In this document: in pieces, positions 9,012 through 63,434 of the stretch | Numbering within the stretch: the first letter of the stretch is position 1 | Layout: the number at the start of each line of letters is the position of its first letter | Source: Candidatus Micrarchaeia archaeon | GTDB taxonomy: Archaea > Micrarchaeota > Micrarchaeia > Burarchaeales > JACRGF01 | Direction: 5' to 3' | NCBI GenBank assembly: GCA_038870455.1 | Contig: JAWCPB010000002.1 | Location: 2,247 to 66,246 of the forward strand | Length of the DNA stretch: 64,000 bases | Translations under genes and position numbers: made by a program | Notes under the pieces: generated by a model | Seen by the model: only the letters and a program-made list of their open reading frames with translations | Databases searched by the model: none | Told to the model about the DNA's origin: nothing

Positions 9012-9039
9012 AACTATTCTTTTTTGAAATCCCTCTCGG

Positions 9040-9477: not shown

Positions 9478-9487
9478 TATTCTTTTC

Positions 9488-9517
9488 GGAATAAAACTTA
9501 TAGGAAATTATTTATAT
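9488..9517 (+). promoter_or_regulatory. GGAATA box (9488-9493, in tttcggaataaaa) plus TATA-like attatttatat (9507-9517) upstream of MoaD number 2
   Basis: Same tttcggaata sequence as at 1211-1219. Lies in the AT-rich island 9478-9520. Confidence 0.45.
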
Positions 9518-9549
9518 GCGCACGACGGAATATCCTCGGGTGGTTTCCT

Positions 9550-9825: not shown

Positions 9826-9830
9826 GCCCC

Positions 9831-13396: not shown

Positions 13397-14418
13397 CTGC
13401 GCGTGAGAAGGAAAAGGAGGCTCTCTACTGGCGCGTGCTCAAGGGCGACGCGCTGCAGTGCACGCTGTGCCCTCACTGGTGCACAATTCTCGAGGGAAGA
13501 AGGGGAAGGTGCAGGGTCAGGGAGAACAGGCGCGGCAGGCTCTACTCGCTGGTCTACGGCAAGCCGTCGGCGATTCAGATAGACCCCATTGAGAAAAAAC
13601 CGAACTTTCACTTCCTGCCCGGCTCGCTGTCGTATTCCATTGGCACGGTGGGCTGCAACCTGAGGTGCGCCTTCTGCCAGAACTGGCAGCTTTCGCAGGC
13701 GAGCCCCGGCGACCTGCCGCATTATGATCTCCCACCACAGGCGGTTGTTGACGAGGCGCTGCGGTACGGCTGCGCCTCGATCGCCTATACCTACAACGAC
13801 CCAGTGGTGTTCATCGAATACGTCATGGACACGGCCAGGCTCGCCCGTCCGCGAGGGCTGCGGAGCGTTTTCGTCACGGCTGGCTTCATCAACCCGCAGC
13901 CGCTCGACGAACTGTGCGGGCTCATCGACAGCGCGCATGTCGATCTCAAGGGATTCAGCGAGCAGTTTTACAGGGAAGTGAGCGGTGCCCGCCTCGCCCC
14001 AGTGCTTGCCACGCTGAAGACGCTCAAGAAAAGGGGCATCTGGTTCGAGGTCATTCACCTCACCGTGCCGGGCCTCTCGGACGACCCTGATGAGATTCGC
14101 ATGATGTGCGAGTGGATGCGGGAGAACATCGGCACAGAAGTCCCGCTTCACTTCACCCAGTTCCACCCGGAGTACAAGATGCTGACCACGCCCGTCACCC
14201 CAGTCGCATCGCTCGAGCGCGCTCACGCCATCGCGAAAGACGTGGGCCTAGAGTATGTCTATGTCGGCAACGTTCCCGGCCACCCTCTCGAGAACACCTA
14301 CTGCCCGAAATGCAACAACCTCCTCATCGAGAGGTGGGGGTTCGAAATACTAAAGAATCTAATACCGGAAGGTATGTGTCCTTACTGCGGCAAAAAACTT
14401 GCTGGAGTATGGCGATAG
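13393..14418 (+). CDS. Radical SAM enzyme, AmmeMemoRadiSam-system type (PFL-activase-like)
   Basis: 341 aa. CNLRCAFCQN (CxxxCxxC). The LQCTLCPHWCTI N-terminal Cys cluster is typical of this family. 4-nt overlap with cysS. Confidence 0.75.
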   Translation: MTAREKEKEALYWRVLKGDALQCTLCPHWCTILEGRRGRCRVRENRRGRLYSLVYGKPSAIQIDPIEKKPNFHFLPGSLSYSIGTVGCNLRCAFCQNWQLSQASPGDLPHYDLPPQAVVDEALRYGCASIAYTYNDPVVFIEYVMDTARLARPRGLRSVFVTAGFINPQPLDELCGLIDSAHVDLKGFSEQFYREVSGARLAPVLATLKTLKKRGIWFEVIHLTVPGLSDDPDEIRMMCEWMRENIGTEVPLHFTQFHPEYKMLTTPVTPVASLERAHAIAKDVGLEYVYVGNVPGHPLENTYCPKCNNLLIERWGFEILKNLIPEGMCPYCGKKLAGVWR

Positions 14419-20931: not shown

Positions 20932-21339
20932 ATGAGCACTCCCTCGCTAATTGTAAAAAGGGACGGCAGAATCATTCACCGCTCTCATGCAAGGGGGCTG
21001 AGGCCGCTCGCCCTGCTTTTCTTCAACGGACGAGACATCCTCGAGGGCGCGGACGTTTTCGACAAGGTCGTGGGGGAAGCGGCCGCCAGGCTTTTCGTGC
21101 TCGCCCGGGCCAGAAGTGTCGAGGCCGGCGTGGCGAGCGAGCCCGCGCTGGAGCGCCTCGCCAGGGCAGGGGTAAGGGCAAGCGCGCACAGGGTTGTCGA
21201 AGCGATTCTCCGCGCCGACGGGCGGGGTCGGTGCTCCATGGAAATTTTGAGCGGCGAGCATCCGGGCGATGACGAATTTGTTGCCGCGCTGTCAAAAATT
21301 TTTGCGGGTGAGGGACACGGAGTTCGAGCGCGCGCCTGA
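20932..21339 (+). CDS. Hypothetical protein (possibly DUF1893/TM1506-like)
   Basis: 135-aa ORF directly after the membrane protein. Assignment by weak recollection only. Confidence 0.3.
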   Translation: MSTPSLIVKRDGRIIHRSHARGLRPLALLFFNGRDILEGADVFDKVVGEAAARLFVLARARSVEAGVASEPALERLARAGVRASAHRVVEAILRADGRGRCSMEILSGEHPGDDEFVAALSKIFAGEGHGVRARA

Positions 21340-21721
21340 CGTGCAGGCCATCCTCGAGAGGCTGCTGCGCGGCCTCGAGCTGCCGCACATCAACGCATAC
21401 AGGCTGCTGTGCATGCGCTCAAGGGGCTCGCGGGCCGGCGCGCTCGCGCGCATCTGGTCGCTTCCCCAAGTCTGGCAGAAGGCGCTCGACATCAGGGCGT
21501 ATTACGTCATCGAGGTGCTGGCCGAGAGGTTCGACGCGCTGAGCCAAGAGGAGAAGGAGAAGGTGCTCATTCACGAGCTGCTGCACATTCCCAAGAGCTT
21601 CAGCGGCGCGCTGCTTCCCCACAGCTGCAGGTGGGCCAGGATTGACGACAGGAGGGTGAATGCGCTGTGGAGGCGGTACAGGGAGAACTCGGCGCAGTCG
21701 ATTGCGGAGCTGAGGGAGTGA
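21269..21721 (+). CDS. Predicted metal-dependent hydrolase with HExxH motif (SprT/DUF45-like); start uncertain
   Basis: VLIHELLHIP zinc-binding motif near the C-terminus. The 5' end overlaps the previous ORF, so the true start is probably downstream. Confidence 0.4.
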   Translation: MTNLLPRCQKFLRVRDTEFERAPDVQAILERLLRGLELPHINAYRLLCMRSRGSRAGALARIWSLPQVWQKALDIRAYYVIEVLAERFDALSQEEKEKVLIHELLHIPKSFSGALLPHSCRWARIDDRRVNALWRRYRENSAQSIAELRE

Positions 21722-29870: not shown

Positions 29871-31049
29871 ATGCTTCAGATGGGTGTGGTGGGCGCGCCC
29901 AACAAGGGCAAGAGCACTTTCTTCGCAGCGGCGACGCTTGTCGATGTGCCGATCGCGGACTATCCATTCACCACGATAGAGGCGAACAGGGGTGTTACTT
30001 TCGTCAGGGCCGAATGCCCTCACAAGGCGCTGGGGCTGGCGGGCTGCAATGCAAGAAACAGCAGGTGCGTTGATGGCGTGCGCCTCATCCCCACCACGCT
30101 CATAGACGTTGCCGGCCTCGTGCCGGGCGCGCACCTCGGCCGGGGCATGGGCAACGCCTTTCTCAGCGACGTCGGCAAGGCGAATGCGCTCATCCAGGTT
30201 GTCGATGCCAGCGGCAGGACAGACCTGGAGGGGCGGCCGTGCGAGCGATGCGACCCCGGCGAGGAGGTGCGCATGCTCGAGGGCGAGGTGGCAGCCTGGA
30301 TTGCGAGCATTCTCAGGCGCGCCTGGCCGAAGATACGCGGGAAGGGGGCGGCCGAGCTTGAGGGAACGCTCAGCGGGCTGGGGATCGCGCGCAGCGACAT
30401 AGAGAAGGCGGCAGAGGCGTGCCACCTCTCCGTCATGGGCATCAACTGGAGCGAGGCCGACATTCTCGCCTTTGCGGCCGCGCTCAGGCAGGCCAGCAAG
30501 CCGGTCATCATAGCGGCAAACAAGATTGACCTCGATGGCGCCGCCGACAACCTGGCCGGGCTCCGCCGCGCCTTTCCCGATAAGAAAATCTTTCCCTGCT
30601 TCGCCGAGGGCGAGCTCGCCCTGCGCAGGGCCGCAGAAAAGGGGCTCGTCAAGTACGTTCCGGGAGACCCGGACTTTCGCATCACAGGAAGCGCGAGCGA
30701 GAGGCAGGTCGCCGCGCTCGAGAGCATCAGGTCCGTCATGAGGCGGCACGGCGGCACTGGCGTGCAGCCGCTCATCAACGAGGCCGCCTTCTCGCTCCTC
30801 AACCTCATCGTAGTCTATCCTGTCGAGGACGAGCACAAGCTTGCCGACCACTTCGGCAGCATCCTGCCCGACGCCCTGCTGCTGCCACGGGGCTCGACAG
30901 TGCTCGATCTCGCTGGCAAAATACACTCCGACCTCGCCGCTCACTTCATTCATGCGATTGACTGCAGGACACAGATGCGCGTGGGCAGGGAGCACGTGCT
31001 GCGCGATGGCGACGTTATAAAAATAGTCTCAGGCAAAGCCTCAAAATAG
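29871..31049 (+). CDS. Obg-like GTPase of the DRG/YchF type with C-terminal TGS domain
   Basis: 392 aa. GVVGAPNKGKST (G1), YPFTT (G2), DVAGLV (G3), ANKID (G4). C-terminal REHVLRDGDVIKIV TGS-like segment. Confidence 0.75.
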   Translation: MLQMGVVGAPNKGKSTFFAAATLVDVPIADYPFTTIEANRGVTFVRAECPHKALGLAGCNARNSRCVDGVRLIPTTLIDVAGLVPGAHLGRGMGNAFLSDVGKANALIQVVDASGRTDLEGRPCERCDPGEEVRMLEGEVAAWIASILRRAWPKIRGKGAAELEGTLSGLGIARSDIEKAAEACHLSVMGINWSEADILAFAAALRQASKPVIIAANKIDLDGAADNLAGLRRAFPDKKIFPCFAEGELALRRAAEKGLVKYVPGDPDFRITGSASERQVAALESIRSVMRRHGGTGVQPLINEAAFSLLNLIVVYPVEDEHKLADHFGSILPDALLLPRGSTVLDLAGKIHSDLAAHFIHAIDCRTQMRVGREHVLRDGDVIKIVSGKASK

Positions 31050-48605: not shown

Positions 48606-50117
48606 TTACAGGAAATCGGAGAGCTTTGCCTGTCCCCTCTTCACCGGCCTTGCTTCCCTCGCCGCGCCCGCCTGCAGCCTCCTCATTATTCTCCTCATTT
48701 TTCTTTCCTTGCTTCGCGCGCTCCACCAGAACGCCTCGTCCCTCGTCCCCTTGGTCAGCAGCACGATCACCTCGCCCGCCTTCGCCCTGCCGGCTCTTCC
48801 CCTCCTCTGAATGCTTCTTATCTCGCTGGGGATGGGTTCGTAGAACACGACCGCATCGACGCTCGGGATGTCCAGCCCCTCCTCTCCGATCGAGCTCGCC
48901 ACCAGCACACTGTGCTCGCCCGCCCTGAACCGCTCGATGGTTTCCCGCTGCTCTTTTTCGCCGACCCCCTCGCGCTTTCCCACAAAAGGCGCGGCATTCA
49001 CCCCAACCCCGCGCAGTTCCTCGACTATCCTCTTCACCTGGTCTCTGTACTGCGTGAACACGATGAGCGTCTTTCCCTGCCCGGCCCTGTCTGCAACAAT
49101 TTCCTTGAGCCTGGCCATCTTCGGGTGCTCGCCGAGCTCTCCGGCCCTCTCGACCGCCCTCCTCACCCTGGCGTCGGCGAGCAGCCTGGCCACGGCCTTG
49201 CTCTTGCTCTCCCGCTCGGCCATTTTCCTGAAGAATTCCTTGAACGCGAAAGGGCTCTGCGTCTCGAGCAGCTCGAGCGCGAGCACGAGGTTGAACAGCA
49301 TCGCCACCGCAGACAGCGCCTGGAACCTCCGCCCGCTGTCGTCCTTAAGTATTTTTTCCCGCAGCTCGAGCAGCTCTTTTTTCGAAGGGCATTTTTTCCT
49401 CGCGTGCCAGTAGCCGAGCCTCTTGAGCTTGGCCACGCCTTCAGCGACAACCCCCTCGAGATCCTCCCTCGCGGCCTCGAACGCTTTGGGCAGCTCCACC
49501 TCGACCACGCTCACCTCAAGCGGCTTCACGTAAGGCGCGACATCAGCGTCCGCCTCCGTTCTTATTTCAAAGTGCTCCGCCCCGAGCGCGGCCGCCACCT
49601 CCCTTATCTTCTCCTCCCGTCCGCCTGGCGATGCCGTGAGCCCGAGCGCGCGCACTCCCGCTCTCCTGCACTCCTGGGCCAGCGTGGTGTATGCATAGTC
49701 GCCCACCGTCCTGTGCGCCTCATCAAACACCACGATGGCAAAATCCTCCACCCTCATCCTGCCCGCCCGTAGGTCGTTGTGGGCCGTCTGCGGAGTCGCG
49801 GCGATGACCCTCCCGCTCTCCCAGCTTCTCTTCTCAGCCCCTTTTTCCCCAGTCAGCAGCACAACCTCGTCCTGCCCGAGCGTGGTCAGCTCCAGCATTG
49901 TCCTCGCATGCTGCTCGGCCAGCGGCCGCGTGGGCGCAAGGATGAGCGCCCGCCCTCTCTCCCCCAAAACCTTTTCCATAACCAGAATGGCTATCAGCGT
50001 CTTTCCCAATCCGGTGGGCAGCACGACGAGCGAGCTTCCCCTCTCAGCCACTTTTCCCGCAATCGCCCGCTGGTACTCCCTGGGCTCGATTTTGTCTCTT
50101 CTCAAGAGCCACGCCAC
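48606..50117 (-). CDS. Superfamily-2 helicase of the Hef/FANCM/RIG-I-like type (helicase core only, basic C-terminal tail)
   Basis: 503 aa. [11 protein letters not shown]...VLPTGLGKT (motif I), DEAH, SAT-like and HRxGRxxR motifs. Confidence 0.75.
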
Positions 50118-50422: not shown

Positions 50423-51808
50423 TCAAAAGAAAAGGTCCCTCTCGCCCGCCTCAATGCGCTTGAGCCTTTTCAAAAACTCTTCCCGCTTCGTCTCTTCCAC
50501 CTCTGAGGTCATCCTCCTGATGAGTTCCTCGCCCTCTTCCTTCAGCTCTGGCGTGGCGTAGTCCATCAGGAATTCTTTGAAAGTCAGCAGCGCGTTGGGC
50601 GTGCACAGCCTGTTTATCTGGCCTGTCTTGGCGAGTTTCATGAAAGCCTGTCCTGTTCTCTTGCTCCTGTAGCACGCCGTGCAGAAGGAGGGCAGAAAGC
50701 CCTTGGCGCACACATCGGCCAGCACCTCGTGCAGGCTGCGGTGGTCGCTCAATGCAAACTGCTCGCCCACCATGCTCTTCTTACTGTAGCCGCCTGGCGA
50801 TGTCCTCGAGCCGGCGCTCGCCTGGCTTATGCCAATCGCAAAAGCCTTCTCCCTGACCTCAGGCCTCTCTCTCGTGGAGATGATCATGCCGGTGTAGGGC
50901 ACGGCGATGCGGTACACAGCGATGATCTTCAGGAAATCTCTGTCGCTCACCGGAAAAGGCGGTTCGAAAGAGATTCCTGCGGCCGGCCTTATCCTCGGCA
51001 CGCTTATGGTGTGCGGCCCCACACCGTACTTCTCATCCATCCACTGCGCGTGCGCGATGAGCGCGAGCACATCAAACTTGTAGTCGTACAGCCCGAGCAG
51101 CACGCCCACACCATAGTCGTCTATGCCGGCCTCGAACGCCCTGCAGTGTGCGGTGAGCTGCCTCTCATAGTCCCTCTTCAATCCCTTGTGCACTCTCTCA
51201 TAAGTCGGCCGGTGGTATGTCTCCTGAAAGAGCTGGTATGTGCCAATGCCGGCCGCCTTCAGCTTTCTGTAATTCTCTGTTGTCGTGGCCGCGATGTTCA
51301 CGTTCACCCTGCGTATCTCCCCCTTCCTTTCCTTCGTTGCATAAACCGTTCGAATCGCATCCACGATGTAGTCGATAGGTGCTTTCTCGGCGTCCTCGCC
51401 AGACTCGAGCAGGAGCCTTTTGTGCCCCATGCGGATGAGCGCGCGCGTTTCCTCGGCGATTTCCTCTAGCGACAGCCGCTTTCTCTCAATGCTGGTGTTC
51501 AACGCGCTGAATCCGCAGTACGCGCACGCGTTCTTGCAGTAGTTGCTGAGATAGAGCGGAGCAAACCACACCAGCCTGTTGCCATAAATCCCGCGCTTTA
51601 TTTTTGAGGACAACGCGAACATCTTGGCAAGCCCGGCCTCGCTCTCTACATTGAGCAGCCTGGCCACCTCATACAGCTCCAGGCCATTTTTCTCAGCCCC
51701 TTTTGCCAGTATTTCCTGCAGCTCGCGCTCGCTGGGCTCGCCCGCAGCCTCCTCCAGTATTCCGGTTATTCTCTGCTCGCTCACAGCCTCAAACAAATTC
51801 ATGGCCAT
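50423..51808 (-). CDS. Radical SAM enzyme of the HydG/ThiH type (CX3CX2C plus C-terminal CX2CX22C)
   Basis: About 460 aa from MAMNLFEAV (ATG at 51808). CKNACAYCG radical-SAM motif. C-terminal FCTACYRSKRTGQAFMKLAKTGQINRLC matches the CX2CX22C auxiliary-cluster motif of HydG. Confidence 0.7.
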   Translation of the reverse strand: MAMNLFEAVSEQRITGILEEAAGEPSERELQEILAKGAEKNGLELYEVARLLNVESEAGLAKMFALSSKIKRGIYGNRLVWFAPLYLSNYCKNACAYCGFSALNTSIERKRLSLEEIAEETRALIRMGHKRLLLESGEDAEKAPIDYIVDAIRTVYATKERKGEIRRVNVNIAATTTENYRKLKAAGIGTYQLFQETYHRPTYERVHKGLKRDYERQLTAHCRAFEAGIDDYGVGVLLGLYDYKFDVLALIAHAQWMDEKYGVGPHTISVPRIRPAAGISFEPPFPVSDRDFLKIIAVYRIAVPYTGMIISTRERPEVREKAFAIGISQASAGSRTSPGGYSKKSMVGEQFALSDHRSLHEVLADVCAKGFLPSFCTACYRSKRTGQAFMKLAKTGQINRLCTPNALLTFKEFLMDYATPELKEEGEELIRRMTSEVEETKREEFLKRLKRIEAGERDLFF

Positions 51809-52866
51809 CACGCGCACACTGGCGCGGCGAACTTCGGCATCAGGTCTTTGGCGTATCCCCGGCACACCCTGCGCCCGATCCGCTCAACAAAAGCGAGCGC
51901 CTCGCCCGTCAACCTTTCGATATCTTCCTGCGCCCCAAACCTGTTGGGGTAAATCGCGTAGTCCGCGCTGTATTCCCTCGGGGTTATGTTTATCATCAGA
52001 GAGTTCGCCCCAGCGAACAGCGCCTTTCTCCTCGCGCCCGCATCCAGCGTCTCGAACGCGGTGGTCACGGGAATCCTCACCCTCTTGTAGAGCAGCCTTG
52101 CCACGGCAATCGTCCTCAGTGCCAGCCCAACATCCCCGCCCCGCTCGCCGGCCAGCGGGGTTGGCGGCGATGGCACGAAAGGCCCCACGCTCACCATGTT
52201 TGCCCCGAATTCGCCGAGCGCCAGCACATCGCGCGCCAGCCCGCCAATGCTCTGGCCGGGCAGCCCGATCATGAATCCCGTCGCAATCAGGTAGCGCAGT
52301 CGCCTCATGAACTTCAGATGCTCAATCCTCCTATCAAAGCTCGTTCCCGGCCTCATCTTTTCGAAAAGCGCGCGCGCCGTTGTCTCGAACCTGTACAGCA
52401 CGCCGGCAGCGCCCGCCCGCTTGAGCTCGGCGTACTCGCTCTCGCTCCTGTCCCCGATGCTGTAGAAAAGGATGACGTTGCAGCGTTTTTTTATCCCATG
52501 CGCGATGTCGCACAGCGTGCCGATGTCATAGCTCGGGTCCTCGCCCGACTGCAGCACGACCATCTTGTACCCGAGTTCCTTGACGGCCCAAACGACGTGC
52601 TCAATGATGTCCTCGGCTTTCATGCGATACCTTCTCACGCGCGACTCCCTCCTTATGCCGCAGTAGAGGCAGTTGTTCCTGCACCAGTTGCTGAACTCGA
52701 GCACTCCATGCACGCACGTGGCCTTACCGACGAACTTTTCTCTCGCCGCGTCAGCGCGCGCGAACAGCTCGCCAGCCTCGCGCTCGTCGGCAGCGAGCAG
52801 CCTTGCCACAGCCTCCGGGCTCCGTTCCCCGCGCTCGAGCGACTCGAGGGCTTCGAGAAAACGCAT
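51808..52866 (-). CDS. Radical SAM enzyme of the HydE/BioB/PylB type
   Basis: 352 aa. CRNNCLYCG. TIM-barrel radical-SAM core with GxIxGxxE-like motifs. Stop overlaps the downstream HydG-like start by 1 nt. Confidence 0.7.
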   Translation of the reverse strand: MRFLEALESLERGERSPEAVARLLAADEREAGELFARADAAREKFVGKATCVHGVLEFSNWCRNNCLYCGIRRESRVRRYRMKAEDIIEHVVWAVKELGYKMVVLQSGEDPSYDIGTLCDIAHGIKKRCNVILFYSIGDRSESEYAELKRAGAAGVLYRFETTARALFEKMRPGTSFDRRIEHLKFMRRLRYLIATGFMIGLPGQSIGGLARDVLALGEFGANMVSVGPFVPSPPTPLAGERGGDVGLALRTIAVARLLYKRVRIPVTTAFETLDAGARRKALFAGANSLMINITPREYSADYAIYPNRFGAQEDIERLTGEALAFVERIGRRVCRGYAKDLMPKFAAPVCA

Positions 52867-53432
52867 GCAGCTACAATGGCACAGCGCCTATAAAACTCTT
52901 TCTCGCCCAGTTCATTTTTGCCGGCTTTTCTCCAGCAGAATCCGAAACGATTTCCATGCCTTTGCGTGCGGGCAGGAGAACAGCACGACCTCATCCTCGC
53001 GCTCGACCCGCATCAGCCTTTTCACCGCATTCACCTCCTTTTCGGAAAACCCGTAGCGGGGCGCGTTTTTGAGAAGCATGAAGCTCGTCATCCCGGTTTT
53101 TTCGCGCACGACTTCCAGCAACGCCTTCCAAGATTCTTCGTCCAACCTTCTGGCTCCCGCAAGCACCCAGCGTAAGCCACCCATTATTGCCCTTGATGAT
53201 TCTGCACCTTGTTCCGTTGAACTCGAGCTTTTCGAGCCCGCGCACCGTAACCCCGCGCACGAGCGAACACGTTTTGTACGCCGCCGGCCTGCTTCTCCTC
53301 TCGTGCTCCCTCATGAACGTCCTTTGCTGCTCGAGCCACCGTTCCCCCACCGCGCGGGCGTCCACGCAGTGTTTTGGTCTCAGCCAAAGCGTTTTCACAA
53401 TCGTTTTTTGTCCCCGTTTATTAAATCATGCC

Positions 53433-55542: not shown

Positions 55543-56037
55543 ATGAAGGCGCAGGCGGCCATGGAGTACCTCATGTCCTATGGCTGGGCCATCGTCATCA
55601 TTGTCGTCGCGCTGGCCGTGCTCGTCTATCTCGGCGTTTTCAGCGCGGGCGGAAAGACGCCCGACATCTGCTCTTTTCCGCCGGGCATTCAGTGCAGGAG
55701 CTTCAGGCTCGAGGTGGATGGTTCGCTCAACACAACAATCTACAATGGCCTCAGCGACAAAATCATCGTCACGGGCGTGGCCTGCACGGCCGAGCAGCCC
55801 ACCGCCCAGGGCGAGCCACCGGTCTGGGAGAGCACCAATGCGAGCATCGATGCCGGCTACGCCGGCCCTGTGAATTTCGCTGCCTGCAGACTCGGCGACG
55901 GCACGACAGCGACAGGCAAGCTGGGCGATACCTATAGAGGGCGGCTTTACATCCGCTACCATCTCCAAAGCGAGGGAAGCGCCTCCCCCCGGGTGATTAG
56001 GGGCGACATCAGCGCGGGCATGCAGCCGGCGACCTAG
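55543..56037 (+). CDS. Class III signal peptide (archaeal type IV pilin/archaellin-like) protein
   Basis: 164 aa. MKAQAAMEYLMSYGWAIVIIVVALAVLVYLGVF fits the KAQAAxEYL plus hydrophobic N-terminus of archaeal pilins. Confidence 0.7.
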   Translation: MKAQAAMEYLMSYGWAIVIIVVALAVLVYLGVFSAGGKTPDICSFPPGIQCRSFRLEVDGSLNTTIYNGLSDKIIVTGVACTAEQPTAQGEPPVWESTNASIDAGYAGPVNFAACRLGDGTTATGKLGDTYRGRLYIRYHLQSEGSASPRVIRGDISAGMQPAT

Positions 56038-56630
56038 CCTCTGGTGCGCGTCAGGCATCCTCTCGCTATCTCCTCATACTTGCTCTTGGGAGCCACGCGC
56101 GCGATGGTTGCGGCCGCCTCTTCAAGAAACCGCTTGAGGAAAGCATCCTTCTCAGCGTCCATGCCGATTTTTGTGGCGGCGATGACGCACTCGAGCGCGA
56201 GCGCGGGCGCGCGCGAGAGCAGGGTGGGCTTGCCAACGCCATCCACAACGTCTGCCGTTATCGTTCCCCGTCCGCTGCCGTCCTCCTTGAACGCGAGCAC
56301 CTTGCACTGCCAGTAGGATGGCGCGCAGGAGAGCGCGGGCGCGTCGATGTCTGTCTTGCGGAATCGCTCTTTCCCGGCCTTGTCCGTGTCGAAAATGTGC
56401 GTATAGAATTCCTCAACGTCTTCGACAAAATTCAGCACGAAACATCTTCTTGCTTGAATGTTGGCGTAGGTCTGCGTCTCCCTGTAGGGGCGCACGACTA
56501 TCGTCTTCAAGTCGCTCGAGTGAAAGCCCATGGGCGCGGCGTTCGCCAGCCCTTCTGGCGAGTAGGTGCTCACAATTCCCTCATAAATCCAGTCCCTTTC
56601 CATGCCGGCTTGCTTGAGGTCAACCCTCAT
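56034..56630 (-). CDS. DUF447-family protein (split-barrel-like, uncharacterised)
   Basis: 198 aa. Assignment by family recollection. First gene of a minus-strand block continuing into pterin genes. Confidence 0.4.
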   Translation of the reverse strand: MRVDLKQAGMERDWIYEGIVSTYSPEGLANAAPMGFHSSDLKTIVVRPYRETQTYANIQARRCFVLNFVEDVEEFYTHIFDTDKAGKERFRKTDIDAPALSCAPSYWQCKVLAFKEDGSGRGTITADVVDGVGKPTLLSRAPALALECVIAATKIGMDAEKDAFLKRFLEEAAATIARVAPKSKYEEIARGCLTRTRG

Positions 56631-57955
56631 CCACTCTTCCTCACGAACTTCACTGCCTCACGCATTTTTCTCCTCGCCTCTTCCGCTGCCCGCAGCACGC
56701 GCGCCTCCATCGCGCTCTTCTCCCCCGGCTCTTCTTCTCCAGCCAATTTTTTAATTTTCGTATAGGCGCTTTCGCGGAACCTCGGCAGAAGAGGAACCGC
56801 GCGCCCGTCAAGCAGGAGCCGGCATTCTTTTCCCGCCGCTTTTCCAACAACAGCCGCCTTCACCCCGGCCCGCTTGAGCCTTTCGAGCGCAAGCTCCGGC
56901 TTTCGCGTAAATGCAAGAAGCGAGTCCAGCGACACACCAAGGTAATCAATGCCCTGTTCCTCCAAAAGGGCGAGCACCCGCGCGTTCACCATTTCCCTCA
57001 CCTGCTTCTCTTCCAACATAAGCCCCACGCCGCTCGCCCTGCACACCTCAGCCGCATCGCCCCTCAGCCCCCCGTTCGTCACATCGAGCATGGCGTGAAT
57101 GCCGGGACAGCCGGCGAGCGCTCTGCAGGCCCTGATGAAGTTGATGTTGAGCGTCTTGGCGACAACATCGTGGTGCCCCGAGAAAATCGCCGCCGTGCAC
57201 ACCGTGCCGCCACCCGCGCCCTCCGTCATCACAATGGCATCGCCGGGCTTCACGTTTGCTCTCGCAAACAGGTTTCTGCCCGCCACCCCAACCGCCCCCA
57301 CGCACGACACCATCCTGTCTCCTATGACCATGTCGCCGCCAACGCGGAGCGTGCTGCCCGCAACGAGCGGCACGCCCGTCAGCTCGCTCACCGTCCCGAT
57401 GCCTGCTGAAAAATCGAACAGCTTGCCGACATCGCCGTCATCGGCCAGATGCAGGTCTGTGAAGAGCGCGACCGGCCTTGCCCCCTTCACGAGCACATCG
57501 CGCAGGGCGGCCCTCGTGACGTGAAAGCCTGCCAGAAAGGGCCATTCGCTGAGGCGCGAGTGCGTTCCATCCACCGACACGACAATCGTGTTGCGGCCGG
57601 CCTTCACCGCTCCCGCGTCATCCAGCGCGCCCGGTCCGAGCGCCGTTTTTCCGCTGGCGAATCCAGCGAGCAGCCTGTGCACGAAAAAATCGCCCGTTCC
57701 CCTGCTGCCCACGCCCATCGCGCCCATGCTGACTCCGCTCCTCGGGCAGGAGAGCAGGCGTGCGAGCCAGGAGCTGCGCGGTTTTTTGTTCGACAGCACC
57801 ACTTCGTCAAACACGGCCGCCGCAATGGCACTCGCCCGCGCGCGGTCGATGCCCTTTATCGCTGCGATGAGCCTGGCCATGCCGGCCTCCGCCTTCGCCC
57901 TCTCCTCCCCTTTCGCGAGGGCCCTTCTCGCAAAACCCTCAAGATCCACGCACAC
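56627..57955 (-). CDS. AIR-synthase-related (PurM-like superfamily) protein with N-terminal extension
   Basis: 442 aa. PurM N-domain signature (DDAGAV...IVVSVDGTH) and C-domain. No HypE PRIC terminus. Confidence 0.6.
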   Translation of the reverse strand: MCVDLEGFARRALAKGEERAKAEAGMARLIAAIKGIDRARASAIAAAVFDEVVLSNKKPRSSWLARLLSCPRSGVSMGAMGVGSRGTGDFFVHRLLAGFASGKTALGPGALDDAGAVKAGRNTIVVSVDGTHSRLSEWPFLAGFHVTRAALRDVLVKGARPVALFTDLHLADDGDVGKLFDFSAGIGTVSELTGVPLVAGSTLRVGGDMVIGDRMVSCVGAVGVAGRNLFARANVKPGDAIVMTEGAGGGTVCTAAIFSGHHDVVAKTLNINFIRACRALAGCPGIHAMLDVTNGGLRGDAAEVCRASGVGLMLEEKQVREMVNARVLALLEEQGIDYLGVSLDSLLAFTRKPELALERLKRAGVKAAVVGKAAGKECRLLLDGRAVPLLPRFRESAYTKIKKLAGEEEPGEKSAMEARVLRAAEEARRKMREAVKFVRKSG

Positions 57956-58610
57956 ACCTCACAAAACCCTTCCACCCGCGCCGCGTTGCCAGATTGAATA
58001 CATCAGCCCTCTCCCTTCTCAGCAGGCCGATGAGCCTCCTCGCCACGCCGTGCTTTGTGCCCCTGAAGTCAATCCCGACAAAACCGATGGGGCTCGCGCC
58101 AAAAGCCCGTGCCAGGAAGACGCACCTGTCCCCGTCAGTGAATCCACCAAAGTTGTACACGCGCCCTTTTGGTTCCACCTGCGTTGTGCCGATGAGCTTG
58201 CACCCTCGCAATAACCGCAGCGCCCCACTCAGTTTGCCGATGTTGTCACCGTGTGCGTGAATCACTATAACAGCGCCTCTCTCGCCCGCCTCCCTTATTG
58301 CCTCCATCCTTCCGTCCAAGTCCGTGCATACAACATCTGGAACAATGCCATTTTCCAGCAGCGTTTGGGTCGCGCCGTCCGCGGCAATCACCACGCAGGG
58401 ATGGACGAGCATTATGCTGTTTCTCATTCCGCGCGCGTTCCCAAAAACGATTGCCGGCTTGCCTTGAAGGAACAGCAACAACTCCTTCCCACCTCTCACC
58501 ATCTTTGTAAGCGCATCGCGCGCCCTCTCATCCCTATCGAAATTCAGGCGAAGGGGAGCGAGCTGCCTCTTTATCCTCTCATATTCCTTCATCCATGCAC
58601 CGAGCTCCAT
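57939..58610 (-). CDS. mptE: 6-Hydroxymethyl-7,8-dihydropterin pyrophosphokinase, archaeal type (DUF115)
   Basis: AIVFGNARGMRNSI...VVCTDLDG...IVIHAHGDN is typical of DUF115/MptE. ATG (MELGAW) at 58610. The longer ORF-track start would overlap the upstream gene by 116 nt. Confidence 0.65.
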   Translation of the reverse strand: MELGAWMKEYERIKRQLAPLRLNFDRDERARDALTKMVRGGKELLLFLQGKPAIVFGNARGMRNSIMLVHPCVVIAADGATQTLLENGIVPDVVCTDLDGRMEAIREAGERGAVIVIHAHGDNIGKLSGALRLLRGCKLIGTTQVEPKGRVYNFGGFTDGDRCVFLARAFGASPIGFVGIDFRGTKHGVARRLIGLLRRERADVFNLATRRGWKGFVRCVRGS

Positions 58611-60087
58611 AGATTCCCCACTCCATCGGCTCGTCCTGCACATAGCTCTTGCGCAGCAGGAGACACAGCTCCGCCTTCGCCAGCTCCCTGCCAAGATAAA
58701 CCGCGTGTTCTTTGGAGATTTTCACCCTCCCGTCCCTAGCGATTGCGATTCCAACCTCCCTCGCGTTTTTCCCAGTAAAGAGAATCCTCCGCCCGCCTTC
58801 TTCCCACACCGCGTTTATTCTGTCCGAGAGGAATATTCTGAAGCTTCCTCTGTCGTACTTCGGCCTGGCCTCCTCCGCCTCGACAACTTCGTCGGCGGAA
58901 ATCGCCACGCTCGGCAGCTCTCTCTTTTCCTTGAGCGCCAGCACGCTGAACCCCAAGTCTTTCGGAACCGCTCTTCTCTCCCTCGCCACGCACAGCAGCC
59001 TCGCCGCAGCAGCCAGCTCCCTCACACTCCCTCTTGCCTTTGGGCTTTTCTCAGGCGCAAACAGAAACTCAACGCCAATCTCGCTGGCAAAGCCCGCAAG
59101 CAGCGCGTTCATCCCCACGCTGTCCGCATCGAATAGTTCAACGACATTTCCAACGCCCATCATGAGCGGCACGCCCGGATTCCTCTGTCTGAAATGATGA
59201 TAGGCGAGCAGCGAGTCGGCAAAGCCCGCGCCCACGGGCTCGAGAATGGAGTCGGCGATGAACTTCTCGAAACCCATCTTCTTCAGCTTCTGCCCGGCCT
59301 CCTCAAGCCACTCCACTTTTTCCCAAATTCCTTTCGCAATCCTCCCGCCTTTTCCCGGAATCACCACGCACGGGATGCCGAGCGAGGGCGCGAGCTCTAT
59401 GCTGTCGAGCGTGAGGCTGAGGAGAAGGTCCGCCCCCGCATCCGCCGCAGCCGCAAGCTCCTTCTCGTGCATCGAATCCACGCTCACCGGAAGCCCGCTT
59501 TTCCCAGCCGCTTTCACCAGCCTTTCAATCTCCCCGGAATTATCCTCGTTGGCAACCATCCCGATGTCTATCACGCTCGCGCCCTCCCGTTTGAAGTACT
59601 CGGCCCGCGCGGCCACCTCCTCATCGCTCATTCTCGGGGCGTCGACGATCTCGCCGATCACGCGCATTGTTCCTCCAATCCGCAGCCTGCCCCACACATT
59701 CCCTTTTCTCTCGGCCTCTGCGACAACCCGCGCGGCTTCCTCGGCCATCTCCCTTGCGTGCAGCTTCTCTGCCGGAACATCTTTGGACAGCGCGAGCCCT
59801 CTCGCAATCACCCACGGCAGGTCGCCGATGTGTGTGGGACCACGGAAGCATGGAATTCCCACGCGCCTCTCAAGCTCGCGCACATCAAAATTCACTCCGC
59901 CCGGCAGAATCACGCGCTCGTAGTTACTCAAATCAATCAGTCTGAGCTGTTCCTCAACGAGCGCCAGCGGAAGCAGCGCCGCCACTCCCCACTCGCACAC
60001 AAGGTAATCAACGCCCGGAACGGGCCTGGCCGCGCGCGCGGCGTCCCTGGCGGTCACGGCGAGCGTCCTTCCCATGCCCCCCCACAA
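58579..60087 (-). CDS. Dihydropteroate-synthase-like pterin-binding protein (H4MPT-pathway type) with N-terminal extra domain
   Basis: 502 aa. Pterin-binding TIM-barrel segment RIGGTMRVIGEIVDAP...GASVIDIG. Confidence 0.6.
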   Translation of the reverse strand: MWGGMGRTLAVTARDAARAARPVPGVDYLVCEWGVAALLPLALVEEQLRLIDLSNYERVILPGGVNFDVRELERRVGIPCFRGPTHIGDLPWVIARGLALSKDVPAEKLHAREMAEEAARVVAEAERKGNVWGRLRIGGTMRVIGEIVDAPRMSDEEVAARAEYFKREGASVIDIGMVANEDNSGEIERLVKAAGKSGLPVSVDSMHEKELAAAADAGADLLLSLTLDSIELAPSLGIPCVVIPGKGGRIAKGIWEKVEWLEEAGQKLKKMGFEKFIADSILEPVGAGFADSLLAYHHFRQRNPGVPLMMGVGNVVELFDADSVGMNALLAGFASEIGVEFLFAPEKSPKARGSVRELAAAARLLCVARERRAVPKDLGFSVLALKEKRELPSVAISADEVVEAEEARPKYDRGSFRIFLSDRINAVWEEGGRRILFTGKNAREVGIAIARDGRVKISKEHAVYLGRELAKAELCLLLRKSYVQDEPMEWGIYGARCMDEGI

Positions 60088-60098
60088 ACTCTTTATTC

Positions 60099-61046
60099 GT
60101 GCTTTATTCTATTAATCTTGTGGGAGTGGTTGTCAGGACCGGCAGCAGGCTGCACTTCGGCTTGTTTGACCTGAACGGCGAGCGCGGGCGCTGCGACGGC
60201 GGCGCGGGCGTTTATCTGGAGAAGCCTGGGGTGGAGGTTGAGGCCGAGGAAAGCAAGCGCACCGAAGTCATTGCGGAGGAAAGGGTTGCAGAGATACTCG
60301 CGGCCGCACGCGCATTTGCCCCTCACCGCATCATCGTCCGCCGCTCCATTCCTCCTCACGTCGGCCTCGGCTCAACCACTCAGCTCCTGCTCGCTGTGGC
60401 AAAAGCCTGCGCGCCACACAGGCGCGCGCCAGAGCTTGCGCGAGTGGTCGGCAGGGGGGGCACGAGCGGCATCGGCACATGGGGCTTTGCCAAAGGAGGC
60501 CTCATTTTCGATGCCGGCCATGCCTTTCCAAGTGAAAAAAAGTCGTTTCTACCCTCGGCCGCCTCGCGCGCCCCTCCTCCCCCCCTGCTGGCGCGCATTC
60601 CCCTTCCCCGAAACTGGCTTTTTGTATGCAGCGTTCCTTCACCAAAACGCATTCACGGGAAGCTGGAGAAAAAAATTTTCGCGCGCTACTGCCCGATTCC
60701 AAGCAGGGAGGTTGAGCGCGCTTTTGCAGCCGCTTTTTCCCAAATTGCTCCAGGCGCGCTCGAGCGAGACATCAGTTTGTTCGGCGAAGGCATCGTCGCG
60801 CTTCAATCCATCGGCTTCAAGAAAATAGAGTGGAGGTTTCAAGAGAAAGCAACACGCGAAGCTTTTACCTTGCTGCAGAAAGAATGCGCGGGCGCAGGCC
60901 TCTCCTCCTTCGGCCCCCTCGTTTTCGGCGTGACCGACTCGGCGAAGCAGGCCAGAGGGCTTGCTTCTTTCCTGCCAAACGCCTTCGTCTCGAGGGTGAG
61001 GAACAAGGGCGCATCCATCGCACACTTCAGCAGCTCTCCTGCTTAA
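60099..61046 (+). CDS. mptG: beta-Ribofuranosylaminobenzene 5'-phosphate synthase (GHMP-kinase fold)
   Basis: 315 aa. RTGSRLHFGLFDLNGERGRCDGGAGV..., PPHVGLGSTTQ, VGRGGTSGIGTWGF, FGKREVDIF-like and YCPIP segments match archaeal beta-RFAP synthase. Confidence 0.8.
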   Translation: MLYSINLVGVVVRTGSRLHFGLFDLNGERGRCDGGAGVYLEKPGVEVEAEESKRTEVIAEERVAEILAAARAFAPHRIIVRRSIPPHVGLGSTTQLLLAVAKACAPHRRAPELARVVGRGGTSGIGTWGFAKGGLIFDAGHAFPSEKKSFLPSAASRAPPPPLLARIPLPRNWLFVCSVPSPKRIHGKLEKKIFARYCPIPSREVERAFAAAFSQIAPGALERDISLFGEGIVALQSIGFKKIEWRFQEKATREAFTLLQKECAGAGLSSFGPLVFGVTDSAKQARGLASFLPNAFVSRVRNKGASIAHFSSSPA

Positions 61047-61477
61047 GCCAACCCGCTCTCTGCGAGAAGGCGCTCGATGCGCTCGGCCAGCGCGCGCAGT
61101 GCCTTCGCCTTCGGTTCCAGCCCAATCCTCTCCACCGCACCCTGCGCCTCGATGGAGCCGAGCGCTGTGCGCGCATCGTAATACAGCGCGCGCATCAGCT
61201 CGTATGCTTTCTCGCCAACCTCATCCTCCCTGCCGAGAAATTGCGAGGCTTCGTCTGCAACCCTCTCCATGAGCGCCGCATCCTCCTTGTAATCAACTTT
61301 GGCGAGTGCGTCGAGAATGTGGAAAGGGGAGCGGGACAGCCCCTGGAGGAGAGCCTCCACAGAGCTTTTGTGCGCGCTCTTGGCCACCTGCAGGCCGAGG
61401 ACGGTTTTGCCTCTCTCCAGTATGCTGGGAAATTCTGCCGGCCGTCCGCCCCCCAGCCTCTGCACACCTTTCTTCAT
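61043..61477 (-). CDS. Hypothetical helical protein
   Basis: 144-aa ORF between mptG and the ASKHA-like gene. Confidence 0.35.
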   Translation of the reverse strand: MKKGVQRLGGGRPAEFPSILERGKTVLGLQVAKSAHKSSVEALLQGLSRSPFHILDALAKVDYKEDAALMERVADEASQFLGREDEVGEKAYELMRALYYDARTALGSIEAQGAVERIGLEPKAKALRALAERIERLLAESGLA

Positions 61478-61480
61478 CTT

Positions 61481-62452
61481 TCACACCACAAAATCAAGTA
61501 TGCTGCCGCTCGCGCCATCAATCTCCATGCAATCAAATAATGGATGGAATTCCCCACCGGCGATGCCGTCCGCCAGCATGGCCGCACCGATCGCCGCAGG
61601 CTTTCTTCCATGCCAATAACCTTGGAGGTCGAAGAAGGAAAAGCCTGCCCCAAGCACCTCGAGCTTCTCCTTTGCTTTGCCCGCGAGCGCGCCTGAGAGA
61701 ACGACTTCCTTTGCATCGAGGGCAACGCGCAATCTCGCAAGGTCCTTGAGCACCCCCTCCCAGTAGGCCCTCTCTGCATCGCGGCAGGCTCGCCTCGCAT
61801 CAATCACGCCGCCGGAGAAAACAAATCGTTTGCCCGCCATCCGCCCGCCAGCCATTTTCCCAACCAGCTCCGAATCAACCGCGCCCCTCGCTCGCCAGCC
61901 CATGCTCGCGCAACTTCCTCCAACCCCGTCGATTATCCTGCCTTCCTCCACCGTAAGAAACGCGTTGAAAAAGCTCCCGAGCTCGGCGAAAAGGAAAGTC
62001 GTCTCGTCGAATCTGATGCTTTTTTTGCGGGCAAGGGTAGCGATCGCACAAGCGCACGCCGCCACCTTGTCCGGCGTCCCCAAGTCGAGCTTGTTTATTT
62101 TCCTCCAATCGGGCACTGTGGGGAGATGCTTGGCCCCCGGCAGCACGTATGCATTGATCCCTCTCTGCTTCAGCTCGCGCAACAGCGCGGTGAGCCCGAG
62201 AATGCTCTCGCGCTCTCTCTTGAAGGCGAGGAGGCGAAAGTCGCGGGCGGTGAGCTTGCTCACATGGGTGAGGGGAAGCCCATAACCGGAAGGGGCAGCA
62301 ACGACATCAGCAGCGGCAACGAGGTCAGCGATTCGTCGTGTTCTCCTCTTTGCCTCGGCGCTCCCCATCTCCCTATAGGCAGATAGTTTGCCATCTGTGA
62401 GGAAAGCAATCGACCACCGCGAGCTTCCGGCATCAATGCCTGCCGACAACAC
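61481..62452 (-). CDS. ASKHA (actin-like ATPase) superfamily protein, DUF1464-like
   Basis: 323 aa. N-terminal GIDAGSS phosphate-1 motif and later Gly-rich segments (GGVIDA) typical of sugar-kinase/Hsp70/actin fold ATPases. Confidence 0.5.
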   Translation of the reverse strand: MLSAGIDAGSSRWSIAFLTDGKLSAYREMGSAEAKRRTRRIADLVAAADVVAAPSGYGLPLTHVSKLTARDFRLLAFKRERESILGLTALLRELKQRGINAYVLPGAKHLPTVPDWRKINKLDLGTPDKVAACACAIATLARKKSIRFDETTFLFAELGSFFNAFLTVEEGRIIDGVGGSCASMGWRARGAVDSELVGKMAGGRMAGKRFVFSGGVIDARRACRDAERAYWEGVLKDLARLRVALDAKEVVLSGALAGKAKEKLEVLGAGFSFFDLQGYWHGRKPAAIGAAMLADGIAGGEFHPLFDCMEIDGASGSILDFVV

Positions 62453-62486
62453 GGTTTAAGTAATTGCGCTCCCGATTTAAATACCT

Positions 62487-63434
62487 GTGAGAGACACAGA
62501 GTCCATGCAGGCGTTGCCCGATATTCACGCTTGGCCCCCTGCCTTCAGGGTGCCGCTCACGCGCGCCGGCGTGACGGGCATAAAGAAGGCGCTCGTGCAG
62601 GAGAACGAGGAAGGGAAAAAAACAGTTCTGTACGCCAGCATCGACGCTTTTGTCGACGTGGTGGGCGGGCAGAGGGGCGCGCACTTCAGCCGGCACAACG
62701 AGGTCATCAACGAGTGCGTCGAGCGCGCAGCTTCGGAGAATGTCGCCGATGTTGAGACGCTGTGCTCCGAGATATCAAAGAGGCTGTTGGAGAGGAACGA
62801 GCACGCCACGCGCGCCGAAGTGCGCCTGGCCGCCGACCTCATCCTGCCGAGGCAGGCGCCGGCCAGCGGCTCACCCGTCCAGGAGAACTACCGCATTCTC
62901 GCGAAAGCCGTTTCGTGGGCGGAGGACGGGGCAGTCAGGACGAGGAAATCAATCGGCATAGAAGCCACCGGCATGACCGTGTGCCCGTGCGGCCTCGAGC
63001 TGGCCAGAGAGCACGCGCGCGGCAAGCTCCTCAAGGAGGGTTTTGATGAGAAACAAGCGGAGCTGGCGCTCGCGTCCATCCCGCTCGCGAGCCACAACCA
63101 GAGGTGCAGGGCGACGCTCATCGTTGAGACGGGCGAGGGCGAGCGCGTTGATGCCCAAGACCTCGTGGAAATCGCCGAGGCCAGCATGTCTTCGCCCGCG
63201 TTCGACGTGCTCAAGAGGGAGGACGAGCTCAAGGTCATAGTCGAGGCGCACGCCAGGCCTGCCTTTGTTGAAGATGTTGTTCGCAACATGCTCAGCGGCC
63301 TGCTCGCGGCCTATCCGAACCTGGCGCCTGACGCGCTGGTCACAGCCCGGTGCGAGAGCGCCGAGAGCATTCACGCGCACAACGCGTTTGCAGAAAAAAT
63401 CGTTTCGCTCGGAGAGCTGAGGGAAGGGACGTGA
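62487..63434 (+). CDS. mptA: GTP cyclohydrolase MptA/FolE2 (type IB-like, archaeal)
   Basis: 315 aa. GMTVCPCGLELA metal-binding motif and HNQRCRATL segment typical of the MptA/FolE2 family. Confidence 0.75.
   Translation: MRDTESMQALPDIHAWPPAFRVPLTRAGVTGIKKALVQENEEGKKTVLYASIDAFVDVVGGQRGAHFSRHNEVINECVERAASENVADVETLCSEISKRLLERNEHATRAEVRLAADLILPRQAPASGSPVQENYRILAKAVSWAEDGAVRTRKSIGIEATGMTVCPCGLELAREHARGKLLKEGFDEKQAELALASIPLASHNQRCRATLIVETGEGERVDAQDLVEIAEASMSSPAFDVLKREDELKVIVEAHARPAFVEDVVRNMLSGLLAAYPNLAPDALVTARCESAESIHAHNAFAEKIVSLGELREGT

Follow-up and report, generated by a model that had tools for sequence, protein, structure and literature searches.

The genome of a Micrarchaeota archaeon encodes, side by side, a HydG and an unusual HydE that hint at an undescribed way of building the metal centre of [NiFe] hydrogenases. 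We give a probability of about 0.5 to the reading that this pair is a HydF-independent, two-enzyme Fe-CO/CN module, probably serving a [NiFe] hydrogenase encoded elsewhere; we infer the target from the neighborhoods of related loci and the chemistry from active-site residues. To our knowledge, the Hyp pathway is regarded as the universal [NiFe] maturation route, and the source of the CO ligand of these enzymes in anaerobes is still unsettled. A HydG-based route in hyp-like operons, if true, would be a second, chemically distinct solution—one that connects the maturation of both great hydrogenase families—and would give the CO ligand of the anaerobic [NiFe] enzyme in these lineages an identified source. 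Genome-reduced CPR and DPANN organisms could then mature hydrogenases with few genes, and thousands of "H-cluster maturase" annotations would point to the wrong hydrogenase; we flag what would be a systematic misannotation of the pair's relatives as [FeFe] maturases. We found no prior description of a link between HydG/HydE and [NiFe] maturation in the searchable (non-paywalled) full-text literature.

A HydG/HydE-like gene pair in Micrarchaeota

The pair lies in a 64-kb stretch of DNA (hereafter, the window) from a metagenome-assembled genome of the Micrarchaeota (DPANN), which is not a methanogen. The features discussed here are as follows:

50423..51808, minus strand: hydG, 461 aa, assigned by its TIGR03955 match, alignment to 4WCX, and retained ligands
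51806..51810, minus strand: TGATG stop/start overlap coupling hydE to hydG, read from the sequence
51808..52866, minus strand: hydE-like paralogue ("type II"), 352 aa, without a HypC domain and with the clade-specific C-terminal tail VCRGYAKDLMPKFAAPVCA
52912..53398, minus strand: small gene (about 150 aa) with no assigned function, split by two 1-nt deletions as aligned to a close relative (locus L001)

What kind of enzyme is the HydG? A first-pass annotation, made from the letters alone, had called it a HydG-type tyrosine lyase, and the family scores bear this out: it reaches 540.2 bits against the NCBIfam HydG model TIGR03955, above the equivalog cutoff of 312.15, and has the C-terminal CX2CX22C motif, while the ThiH model, with a cutoff of 380, gives 309 bits. 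Thermoanaerobacter italicus HydG (4WCX) aligns with it over the full length at 532 bits. The N-terminal CX3CX2C (NYCKNACAYC, aligned to C104/C108/C111 of 4WCX), the cysteines of the C-terminal motif (C394/C397/C420), and the histidine ligand of the dangler iron (H266; both in 4WCX chain numbering) are all kept. Although the open reading frame list gave 50423-51865(-), the true start is the ATG at 51808, and the resulting 461 aa equal the length of a 98%-identical homologue (P0001). Because the cluster ligands are fully conserved, the predicted chemistry is orthodox: the protein is probably a tyrosine lyase of the radical-SAM type, assembling an Fe(CO)2(CN)(Cys) synthon on its C-terminal cluster. 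Its dN/dS of 0.05-0.07 indicates purifying selection. NCBI labels this HydG, as well as many HypC-fused relatives of its partner, as H-cluster maturases.

The partner had been described as HydE/BioB/PylB-like. It is closest to HydE, at 233.8 bits with TIGR03956—slightly below the cutoff of 254.6—and 245 bits with the structures of Thermotoga maritima HydE (TmHydE); PylB (140 bits, cutoff 348), BioB (81, cutoff 225), and HmdB (69, cutoff 321) fall far lower. NCBI names a 100%-identical protein (P0254) merely "radical SAM protein." The radical-SAM motif and the upper substrate-site residues Q107, S108, R159, E161, M224, T269, and M291 (TmHydE numbering) are kept. Lower down, the dimerization-pocket residues of TmHydE are swapped (R54H, T134F, and R155G). 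Of the four residues that line the proposed Fe(I) dimerization pocket, three are lost; in TmHydE, R54, T134, and R155 touch CN ligands in the proposed dimerization site (PMC11826987). The auxiliary-cluster cysteines of the TmHydE type are likewise missing. The gene is under purifying selection (dN/dS 0.09-0.16) and overlaps hydG by 1 nt: in ...GTGTGCGCGTGATGGCC..., the hydE TGA stop and the hydG ATG start share one A, which agrees with the translational coupling noted at first pass.

The surroundings of the pair hold no hydrogenase genes. That hydF and hydA are absent nearby, as the first-pass annotation had stated, was confirmed by Pfam and NCBIfam scans of about 60 open reading frames, a six-frame search for the H-cluster motif, and phmmer searches with HydA, HydF, NiFe, and Hyp seeds, all of them negative in the 64-kb window. 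Searches of the same 64 kb for NiFe small and large subunits, HypA-F, HycI, NikR_C, and Zip were negative too, and the sole GTPase in it (29871-31049) is YchF/Obg-like. No thi or bio genes adjoin the pair, and neither hmd nor hcg was seen.

Two HydE clades and their gene neighborhoods

How does the HydE-like protein relate to other HydEs, and what do their genes adjoin? We compared 80 related loci plus others, counting neighbors over 64 nonredundant loci with 10-kb flanks; the HydE and HydG trees were built by neighbor joining (NJ), the only tree method used. The HydE tree parts canonical HydE, including TmHydE, from all other sequences (NJ bootstrap 100/100), and these others include the window clade (the window and loci L001/L012, L002, L013, and L092). 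Canonical HydE is linked to HydF/HydA. In the second clade, an N-terminal HypC domain is fused to nearly every member, and HydF hardly ever lies nearby. The window protein nests within this HypC-fused, NiFe-linked clade (100/100), a clade of HydE paralogues that we define here as "type II." Its identity is 39-49% to fused forms generally (35-37% to a few) and 28-39% to canonical HydE.

Residues divide the two clades in the same way. R54, T134, and R155 are present in 13/13 canonical, HydF/HydA-linked HydEs; other residues stand in their place throughout the 50 type II sequences and the window clade. The window protein carries the type II signature H54/F134/G155/S226/V267/S289/L290 (TmHydE numbering; F or I is allowed at 134 and G or A at 155), differing at position 199 alone among the eight signature positions listed. 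Members of the window clade have nevertheless diverged from the fused forms: neither the window protein nor its counterparts in L001, L002, L013, and L092 have an N-terminal HupF/HypC domain (MC(Y/L)(A/T)IP start), no in-frame sequence lies upstream of the window gene, and a C-terminal tail with two cysteines spaced C-X16-C is a gain unique to this clade.

Among the HypC-fused loci, NiFe subunits occur within 10 kb in 19/49, HydF in 1/49, and HydA in 0/49, the other 30 having no hydrogenase within that distance. Unfused loci have HydF/HydA in 12/15 and NiFe genes in 0/15, and the remaining 3 are those of the window clade (Fisher P = 1.7e-9 and P = 0.003 for the locus counts). The NiFe genes near type II loci belong to [NiFe] group 3 and often stand with hypA, hypB, or hycI. 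Pfam confirmed the NiFe large subunits, HycI, HypA, HypB, and one true HydF in the flanks, and the four cysteine ligands are kept in all NiFe large subunits examined. Two loci (L029 and L076) have the operon hypA-hypB-[hypC::hydE]-hydG, and in a third (L020) HypC, HydE, and HydG form a triple fusion. Escherichia coli HypD and HypE seeds matched nothing in the flanks of 92 loci and the window; over the same flanks, a HypF seed gave two weak matches (E = 2e-5 and 1.5e-4), which we do not take as HypF. The DPANN genomes with HydF (L088 and L090) pair it with canonical HydE. A [NiFe] group-3 hydrogenase as the target, which these related loci suggest, was not considered in the first-pass annotation.

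The window clade itself has no hydrogenase, hypA, hypB, hycI, or hypC genes within its available sequence, and the ±10-kb flanks of four close relatives contain neither hydF nor hydA. Micrarchaeota commonly have group-3b-type NiFe hydrogenases, without hyp genes nearby; about 15 accessions of NiFe large subunits included none near the HydG accessions MEM4389714/MEM3030250 or those of the relatives, MCX8194882/MCX8175097. HydG is useless for assigning the target hydrogenase, since its tree interleaves HydF-linked and NiFe-linked contexts and no group-specific positions distinguish the two.

Proposed role and alternatives

What might the pair make? HydG would cleave tyrosine to yield the Fe(CO)2(CN)(cysteine) synthon, which the type II HydE would convert to a mononuclear Fe-CO/CN species—a product suggested by the retention of the upper SAM/substrate site together with the loss of R54/T134/R155 from the lower pocket. 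This species may then be passed to a hydrogenase large subunit, via Cys2 of HypC in the fused forms. In this Micrarchaeota genome, the recipient would most likely be a [NiFe] group-3b-type enzyme encoded elsewhere. The synthon has two CO and one CN, whereas the [NiFe] site has one CO and two CN, which means that the proposal has to assume an additional ligand exchange.

More broadly, and with a confidence that stops a little short of even, we propose that HydG and HypC-fused HydE form a radical-SAM, tyrosine-derived Fe-CO/CN route for [NiFe] hydrogenases that would take the place of HypD/HypE/HypF in CPR bacteria, DPANN archaea, Omnitrophota, Elusimicrobia, anammox Planctomycetes, and other lineages, with the window pair as a HypC-less Micrarchaeota offshoot. 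Most archaeal genomes seem to be without "proper" maturase sets (PMC11216029), and such a route would bear on why.

Could the pair instead serve ordinary [FeFe] maturation, building the [2Fe] subcluster for a minimal group A1/E hydrogenase encoded elsewhere, with HydF also elsewhere or dispensable in DPANN? Active minimal [FeFe] hydrogenases are indeed known from Micrarchaeota, and partial sets of maturases occur in a few archaeal genomes (PMC11216029). The window covers about 6% of a genome of roughly 1 Mb, nothing sets its HydG apart from the HydF-linked ones, its HydE-like protein retains the upper active site, and NCBI's H-cluster maturase labels would also fit. We nonetheless consider this reading rather unlikely, as the HydE-like protein stands outside the canonical clade (100/100) and under the HydE equivalog cutoff, three-quarters of the residues of the proposed dimerization pocket are gone, hydA is near none of the clade's 49 loci while NiFe genes are near 19, and L088 and L090 show HydF-bearing DPANN genomes using canonical HydE. 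The doubt cast on orthodox [FeFe] maturation by the first-pass annotation survives in spirit, in that this HydE belongs to a HydF-independent clade with a remodeled lower pocket. Its comparison with the Hmd FeGP cofactor and hcg genes finds no support. That comparison had been framed around an archaeon with tetrahydromethanopterin (H4MPT) genes; the host is a DPANN archaeon, the HmdB/HcgA scores are 29-69 bits against 321, and the neighboring H4MPT-like genes are an ordinary archaeal pterin biosynthesis cluster, syntenic with the pair yet unrelated to it.

The HmdB/HcgA scores and the pterin genes, along with the unseen hcg and hmd genes, weigh against the wider idea that the pair makes a different organometallic or tyrosine-derived product, such as an FeGP-like cofactor, or just free CO/cyanide for another acceptor. 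In its favor are the lack of any hydrogenase in the 64 kb and in the flanking DNA of four close relatives, the lost HypC domain, and the two-cysteine tail of the window clade; the closest relatives of both proteins, however, are hydrogenase-linked, and we judge it improbable. Still further down lies a misreading of housekeeping ThiH (thiamine) and BioB (biotin), the outcome that the first-pass annotation had set against its own interpretation. Both proteins do have the Radical_SAM plus BATS architecture, and JGI calls some HydG homologues "2-iminoacetate synthase" and some HydE homologues "biotin synthase." We reject this identity, which has hardly any probability left, on family scores (HydG far above and ThiH and BioB below their cutoffs) and domain content, the CX2CX22C domain being absent from ThiH; nor are thi or bio genes adjacent.

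How does the HydF-independent module that we favor compare with known systems? Like the HydG/HydE/HydF system of H-cluster maturation, it has a HydG that is a full member by score, metal ligands, and C-terminal domain, and an adjoining, coupled partner with the HydE fold, SAM-cluster motif, and upper-site residues. It differs in that the 64 kb contain neither HydF nor HydA, in its separate, below-cutoff HydE clade with a changed S3/dimerization pocket, and in type II relatives that adjoin [NiFe], not [FeFe], genes. The resemblance to the HypC/HypD/HypE/HypF assembly of Fe(CN)2CO comes from related loci, where HydE paralogues carry a HypC domain with its N-terminal cysteine (MCYAIPG/MCLTIPG) and repeatedly lie beside hypA, hypB, hycI, and the structural genes of the hydrogenase, where classical hyp operons have hypD-hypE. 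In contrast to Hyp assembly, HypD, HypE, and HypF were not found in any flank, tyrosine, cleaved by a radical SAM enzyme, would replace carbamoyl phosphate as the source of CO and cyanide, and the window protein itself has no HypC domain. HcgA (HmdB), which acts with other Hcg proteins on the FeGP cofactor of [Fe]-hydrogenase, is likewise a BioB/HydE-like radical SAM enzyme for an archaeal Fe-CO cofactor, but its model gives the HydE-like protein 69 bits and HydG 29 bits against the cutoff of 321, in a nonmethanogen host with no hmd/hcg seen. The HypC-fused proteins are probably the same family as the hypC-like "fam002" of CPR bacteria (Jaffe et al. 2020, PMC7304191), which adjoins their hyd1 and hyd2 NiFe group 3b hydrogenases; that paper reports the hypC homology alone, mentioning neither the radical SAM/HydE domain nor the adjacent HydG.

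A split gene upstream of the pair

Two small overlapping open reading frames upstream of hydE had been suggested to be one frameshifted gene, and comparison with relatives upholds this. In L001 (a 98% relative) and L092 (an 86% relative), a single intact frame of 157 and 145 aa, respectively, occupies the same position and is homologous across both window frames. Against L001, the window has 1-nt deletions near 53180 and near 53166/7, as well as a 15-nt in-frame insertion at about 53269-53283. Either the gene has decayed to a pseudogene or the split is an assembly error. It has no Pfam or NCBIfam match and no similarity to HypC; its candidacy as a detached HypC domain was rejected (BLASTP E = 7). 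Its dN/dS, 0.27 in the N-terminal part and 0.72 in the C-terminal part, indicates relaxed constraint.

The HydG and HydE-like pair and its neighborhood

What enzymes does the pair encode, and which genes accompany them? The relevant features of the window are:

50423-51808, (-): hydG, 461 aa; NCBIfam HydG equivalog
51808-52866, (-): hydE-like gene, 352 aa, directly upstream of hydG; HydE is its top NCBIfam family
56034-63434: pterin biosynthesis cluster (DUF447, AIRS-like, MptE-like, pterin-binding protein with DUF4346, unannotated 315-aa protein, DUF1464, FolE2-type GTP cyclohydrolase)

The first-pass annotation of a HydG-type enzyme with a CX2CX22C motif was borne out. The protein scores 540 bits against the NCBIfam HydG equivalog (cutoff 312) and 309 bits against ThiH (cutoff 380), aligns over its full length with Thermoanaerobacter italicus HydG 4WCX (532 bits), and in that comparison retains CX3CX2C, the CX2CX22C auxiliary-cluster motif, and the dangler-iron histidine. 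A longer, GTG-initiated ORF is not the hydG gene, because the 98%-identical homologue P0001 is likewise 461 aa. The neighbor, previously called HydE/BioB/PylB-like, is best matched by the HydE family at 233.8 bits, slightly below the cutoff of 254.6; PylB (140 bits), BioB (81), and HmdB (69) score far lower, and the top solved relative is T. maritima HydE (TmHydE; 245 bits). The ThiH and BioB scores rule out a housekeeping ThiH/BioB pair. The reported 1-nt overlap of the two genes can be read in the sequence, within TGATG. Both genes are under strong purifying selection (dN/dS 0.05-0.16) within the clade formed by the window and its close relatives. As sequence the pair is already known: the genes are annotated in public MAGs, an NCBI protein encoded on a Micrarchaeia contig of 76,451 bp matches the window HydE at 100% identity, and the nearest proteins and contigs to the window belong to Micrarchaeota/Micrarchaeia MAGs.

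Pfam and NCBIfam scans covered ~60 ORFs, a search for H-cluster motifs took in all six frames, and phmmer was run on the window with seeds for HydA, HydF, the NiFe small and large subunits, HypA-F, and HycI. These searches found no hydA, hydF, NiFe hydrogenase, or hyp genes within the 64 kb, in agreement with the earlier observation that hydF and hydA are not nearby; the sole GTPase (29871-31049) is YchF/Obg-like. The supposed tetrahydromethanopterin genes, at 56-63 kb, turned out to be a pterin biosynthesis cluster of a generic archaeal kind, also kept in the relatives L001 and L092. Synteny of ino1, archaetidylinositol-phosphate synthase, histone, and Hef helicase genes extends to L001, L012, and L092 and is broken in L002 and L013; these neighbors thus have no functional tie to the pair.

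A HydE clade tied to [NiFe] hydrogenases

How is HydE organized in related loci? Our sample comprised metagenome loci and 80 species-representative loci, the latter with HydG homologues that show 52-98% identity, all annotated by seed searches and Pfam with flanks of at most 10 kb. HydG loci fall into two kinds. In type I, the canonical form, HydG is accompanied by HydF and a HydE of ~350-370 aa, and in some cases also by HydA. In type II the HydE beside HydG has ~400-440 aa and carries an N-terminal HupF/HypC domain, which begins MCYAIPG or MCLTIPG and scores above the Pfam gathering threshold.

Genes near HydE in 64 non-redundant loci with full-length HydE
HydE form; loci; NiFe subunits within 10 kb; HydF and HydA
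HypC-fused; 49; 19; HydF 1, HydA 0
Unfused; 15; 0; HydF and/or HydA 12

The other 3 of the 15 unfused loci are the window clade. Across the 64 loci, the contrast is significant for HydF/HydA (Fisher test, p=1.7e-9) and for NiFe subunits (p=0.003). The NiFe large subunits beside type II HydEs match PF00374 and retain all four active-site cysteines, and further neighbors include the HycI protease (9 loci), HypA (6), and HypB (2). In L029 (7519-11359) and L076 (835-4780), the operon reads hypA-hypB-[hypC::hydE]-hydG, the order of a classical hyp operon but with HydE and HydG at the usual places of hypD/hypE. A Falkowbacteria MAG (CAVZGV010000006.1; L020:8681-11338, +) encodes an 886-aa HypC + HydE + HydG fusion (PF01455, two Radical_SAM, BATS), flanked by NiFe hydrogenase beta, gamma, small, and large subunits. 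Across 92 loci and the window, E. coli HypD and HypE seeds had no match, and the HypF seed had just two weak ones (E 2e-5 and 1.5e-4), not counted as HypF. Type II HydE is linked, statistically and by synteny, to the genes of [NiFe] hydrogenase and of Hyp nickel insertion.

Two further arrangements were seen in these loci. At L078:11360-13708 (+), a 783-aa fusion protein adds DUF362 and 4Fe-4S ferredoxin domains to HypC-HydE. A recurrent unannotated protein of ~129 aa (L095:11262-11651, -; L033:12891-13280; L055:2880-3314; L038:7127-7528) adjoins short-small-subunit NiFe hydrogenases and also occurs near HydE/HydG loci.

HydE active site and a proposed maturation route

In a neighbor-joining (NJ) tree, canonical HydEs including TmHydE separate from all others with bootstrap 100/100, and the window clade (window, L001, L002, L013) falls on the HypC-fused, NiFe-linked side. 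Its HydEs share mostly 39-49% identity with fused forms (35-37% with a few) vs. 28-39% with canonical ones; they differ from type II relatives in lacking the HypC domain and in having a conserved two-cysteine C-terminal tail. Both clades share the upper active-site residues Q107, S108, R159, E161, M224, T269, and M291 (TmHydE numbering). R54, T134, and R155, each invariant in canonical HydE (13/13), are replaced in 50/50 type II sequences.

Residues at three TmHydE positions
Position; canonical; type II; window clade
R54; R; H; H
T134; T; F, I or Y; F
R155; R; G, A or S; G

A computational study has these three residues and T269 touching the CN ligands of two Fe(I) units, at the proposed HydE dimerization site (PMC11826987). 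That site is the S3 pocket, whose importance was established by mutagenesis (PMC10114646). For HydG, type I and type II contexts are interleaved in the NJ tree and no alignment position separates them; HydG is therefore a single enzyme serving both settings. The window couples an orthodox HydG to a HydE paralogue from a HydF-independent clade.

We propose that HydG would supply the Fe(CO)2(CN)(Cys) synthon and that type II HydE would perform HydE-like radical chemistry on its cysteine ligand, leaving the product undimerized. The mononuclear Fe-CO/CN unit could then pass to the [NiFe] large subunit, through HypC Cys2 in proteins that have the domain, so that HydG and type II HydE would stand in for HypD, HypE, and HypF. 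One gap in this scheme is that the synthon has 2 CO and 1 CN vs. 1 CO and 2 CN at the [NiFe] site. Judged from NJ trees and flanks of at most 10 kb, there is a substantial chance that the finding points to a new maturation pathway. In the searchable literature we found no description of the two-clade HydE split, the HypC fusion, or the [NiFe]-cluster link; Jaffe et al. 2020 went no further than pointing out a "hypC-like" family next to CPR 3b hydrogenases (PMC7304191).

In the window's own genome, a [NiFe] hydrogenase is a candidate target only. Micrarchaeota commonly carry NiFe hydrogenases of group-3b type, without nearby hyp genes where examined, and one micrarchaeal hydrogenase locus shares two neighbors with a nanoarchaeal HydE/HydG locus:

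L095:3220-4590 (Micrarchaeota): NikR_C protein and Zip metal transporter, adjoining a minimal NiFe hydrogenase
L007:11389-12605 (Nanoarchaeota): close homologues of both (Zip E=3e-58), adjoining HypC-HydE/HydG

The main rival, plain [FeFe] maturation for a minimal DPANN hydrogenase, is possible but doubtful. Minimal [FeFe] hydrogenases are known in Micrarchaeota, and Greening et al. 2024 (PMC11216029) reported maturases missing from most archaeal [FeFe]-hydrogenase genomes, with incomplete sets in a few. However, the window HydE sits outside the canonical clade with altered pocket residues, hydA adjoins none of the 49 HypC-fused loci, and the DPANN loci that do have HydF (L088, L090) carry canonical HydE. 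That the pair makes some other product we consider improbable.

The small upstream gene and other features

The suspicion that the two small ORFs upstream are one frameshifted gene held up. L001 and L092, the 98% and 86% relatives, have a single ORF (157 or 145 aa) between the phosphatidyltransferase gene and hydE, homologous to both. Compared with L001, two single nucleotides are missing from the window gene, a G from a GGGG run (~53180) and a C (~53166/7), and both losses shift the frame in the same direction; the gene also carries a 15-nt in-frame insertion. It has no family match or HypC similarity, is weakly constrained (dN/dS 0.27 and 0.72), and either is decaying or reflects an error of assembly; we saw no evidence tying it to HydE/HydG function.

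Elsewhere in the window, 3045-10861 is a dense sulfur-related cluster of three PLP (PALP) enzymes, two ThiF-family E1-like proteins, an ATP-grasp protein, and a hexapeptide transferase, in which a 79-aa ORF follows the second ThiF; it may be a sulfur-carrier/cysteine pathway. Directly 3' of a ThiF-like gene and ahead of cysS, 10862-11911 (+) encodes a 349-aa protein that has no family match; CGLCGLDCG and CGECGSLAIDCAIGACNACGAC contain some of its 11 cysteines. The gene for a third radical SAM protein, with 14 Cys in 341 aa, lies at 13393-14418 (+) and shares 4 nt with the end of cysS. PF18894, a putative phage metallopeptidase domain, is present in the ORF at 21269-21721 (+). The 164-aa protein at 55543-56037 (+), without a family match and likewise unannotated in L092, has the look of an archaeal class III (pilin-like) signal peptide (MKAQAAMEYLMSYGWAIVIIVV...). 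For the Hef-like helicase at 48606-50117 (-; 503 aa), the match to the 781-position Hef profile is confined to the helicase part, and the nuclease domain is missing; separate ERCC4 proteins are present in the Micrarchaeota loci L094 and L095.
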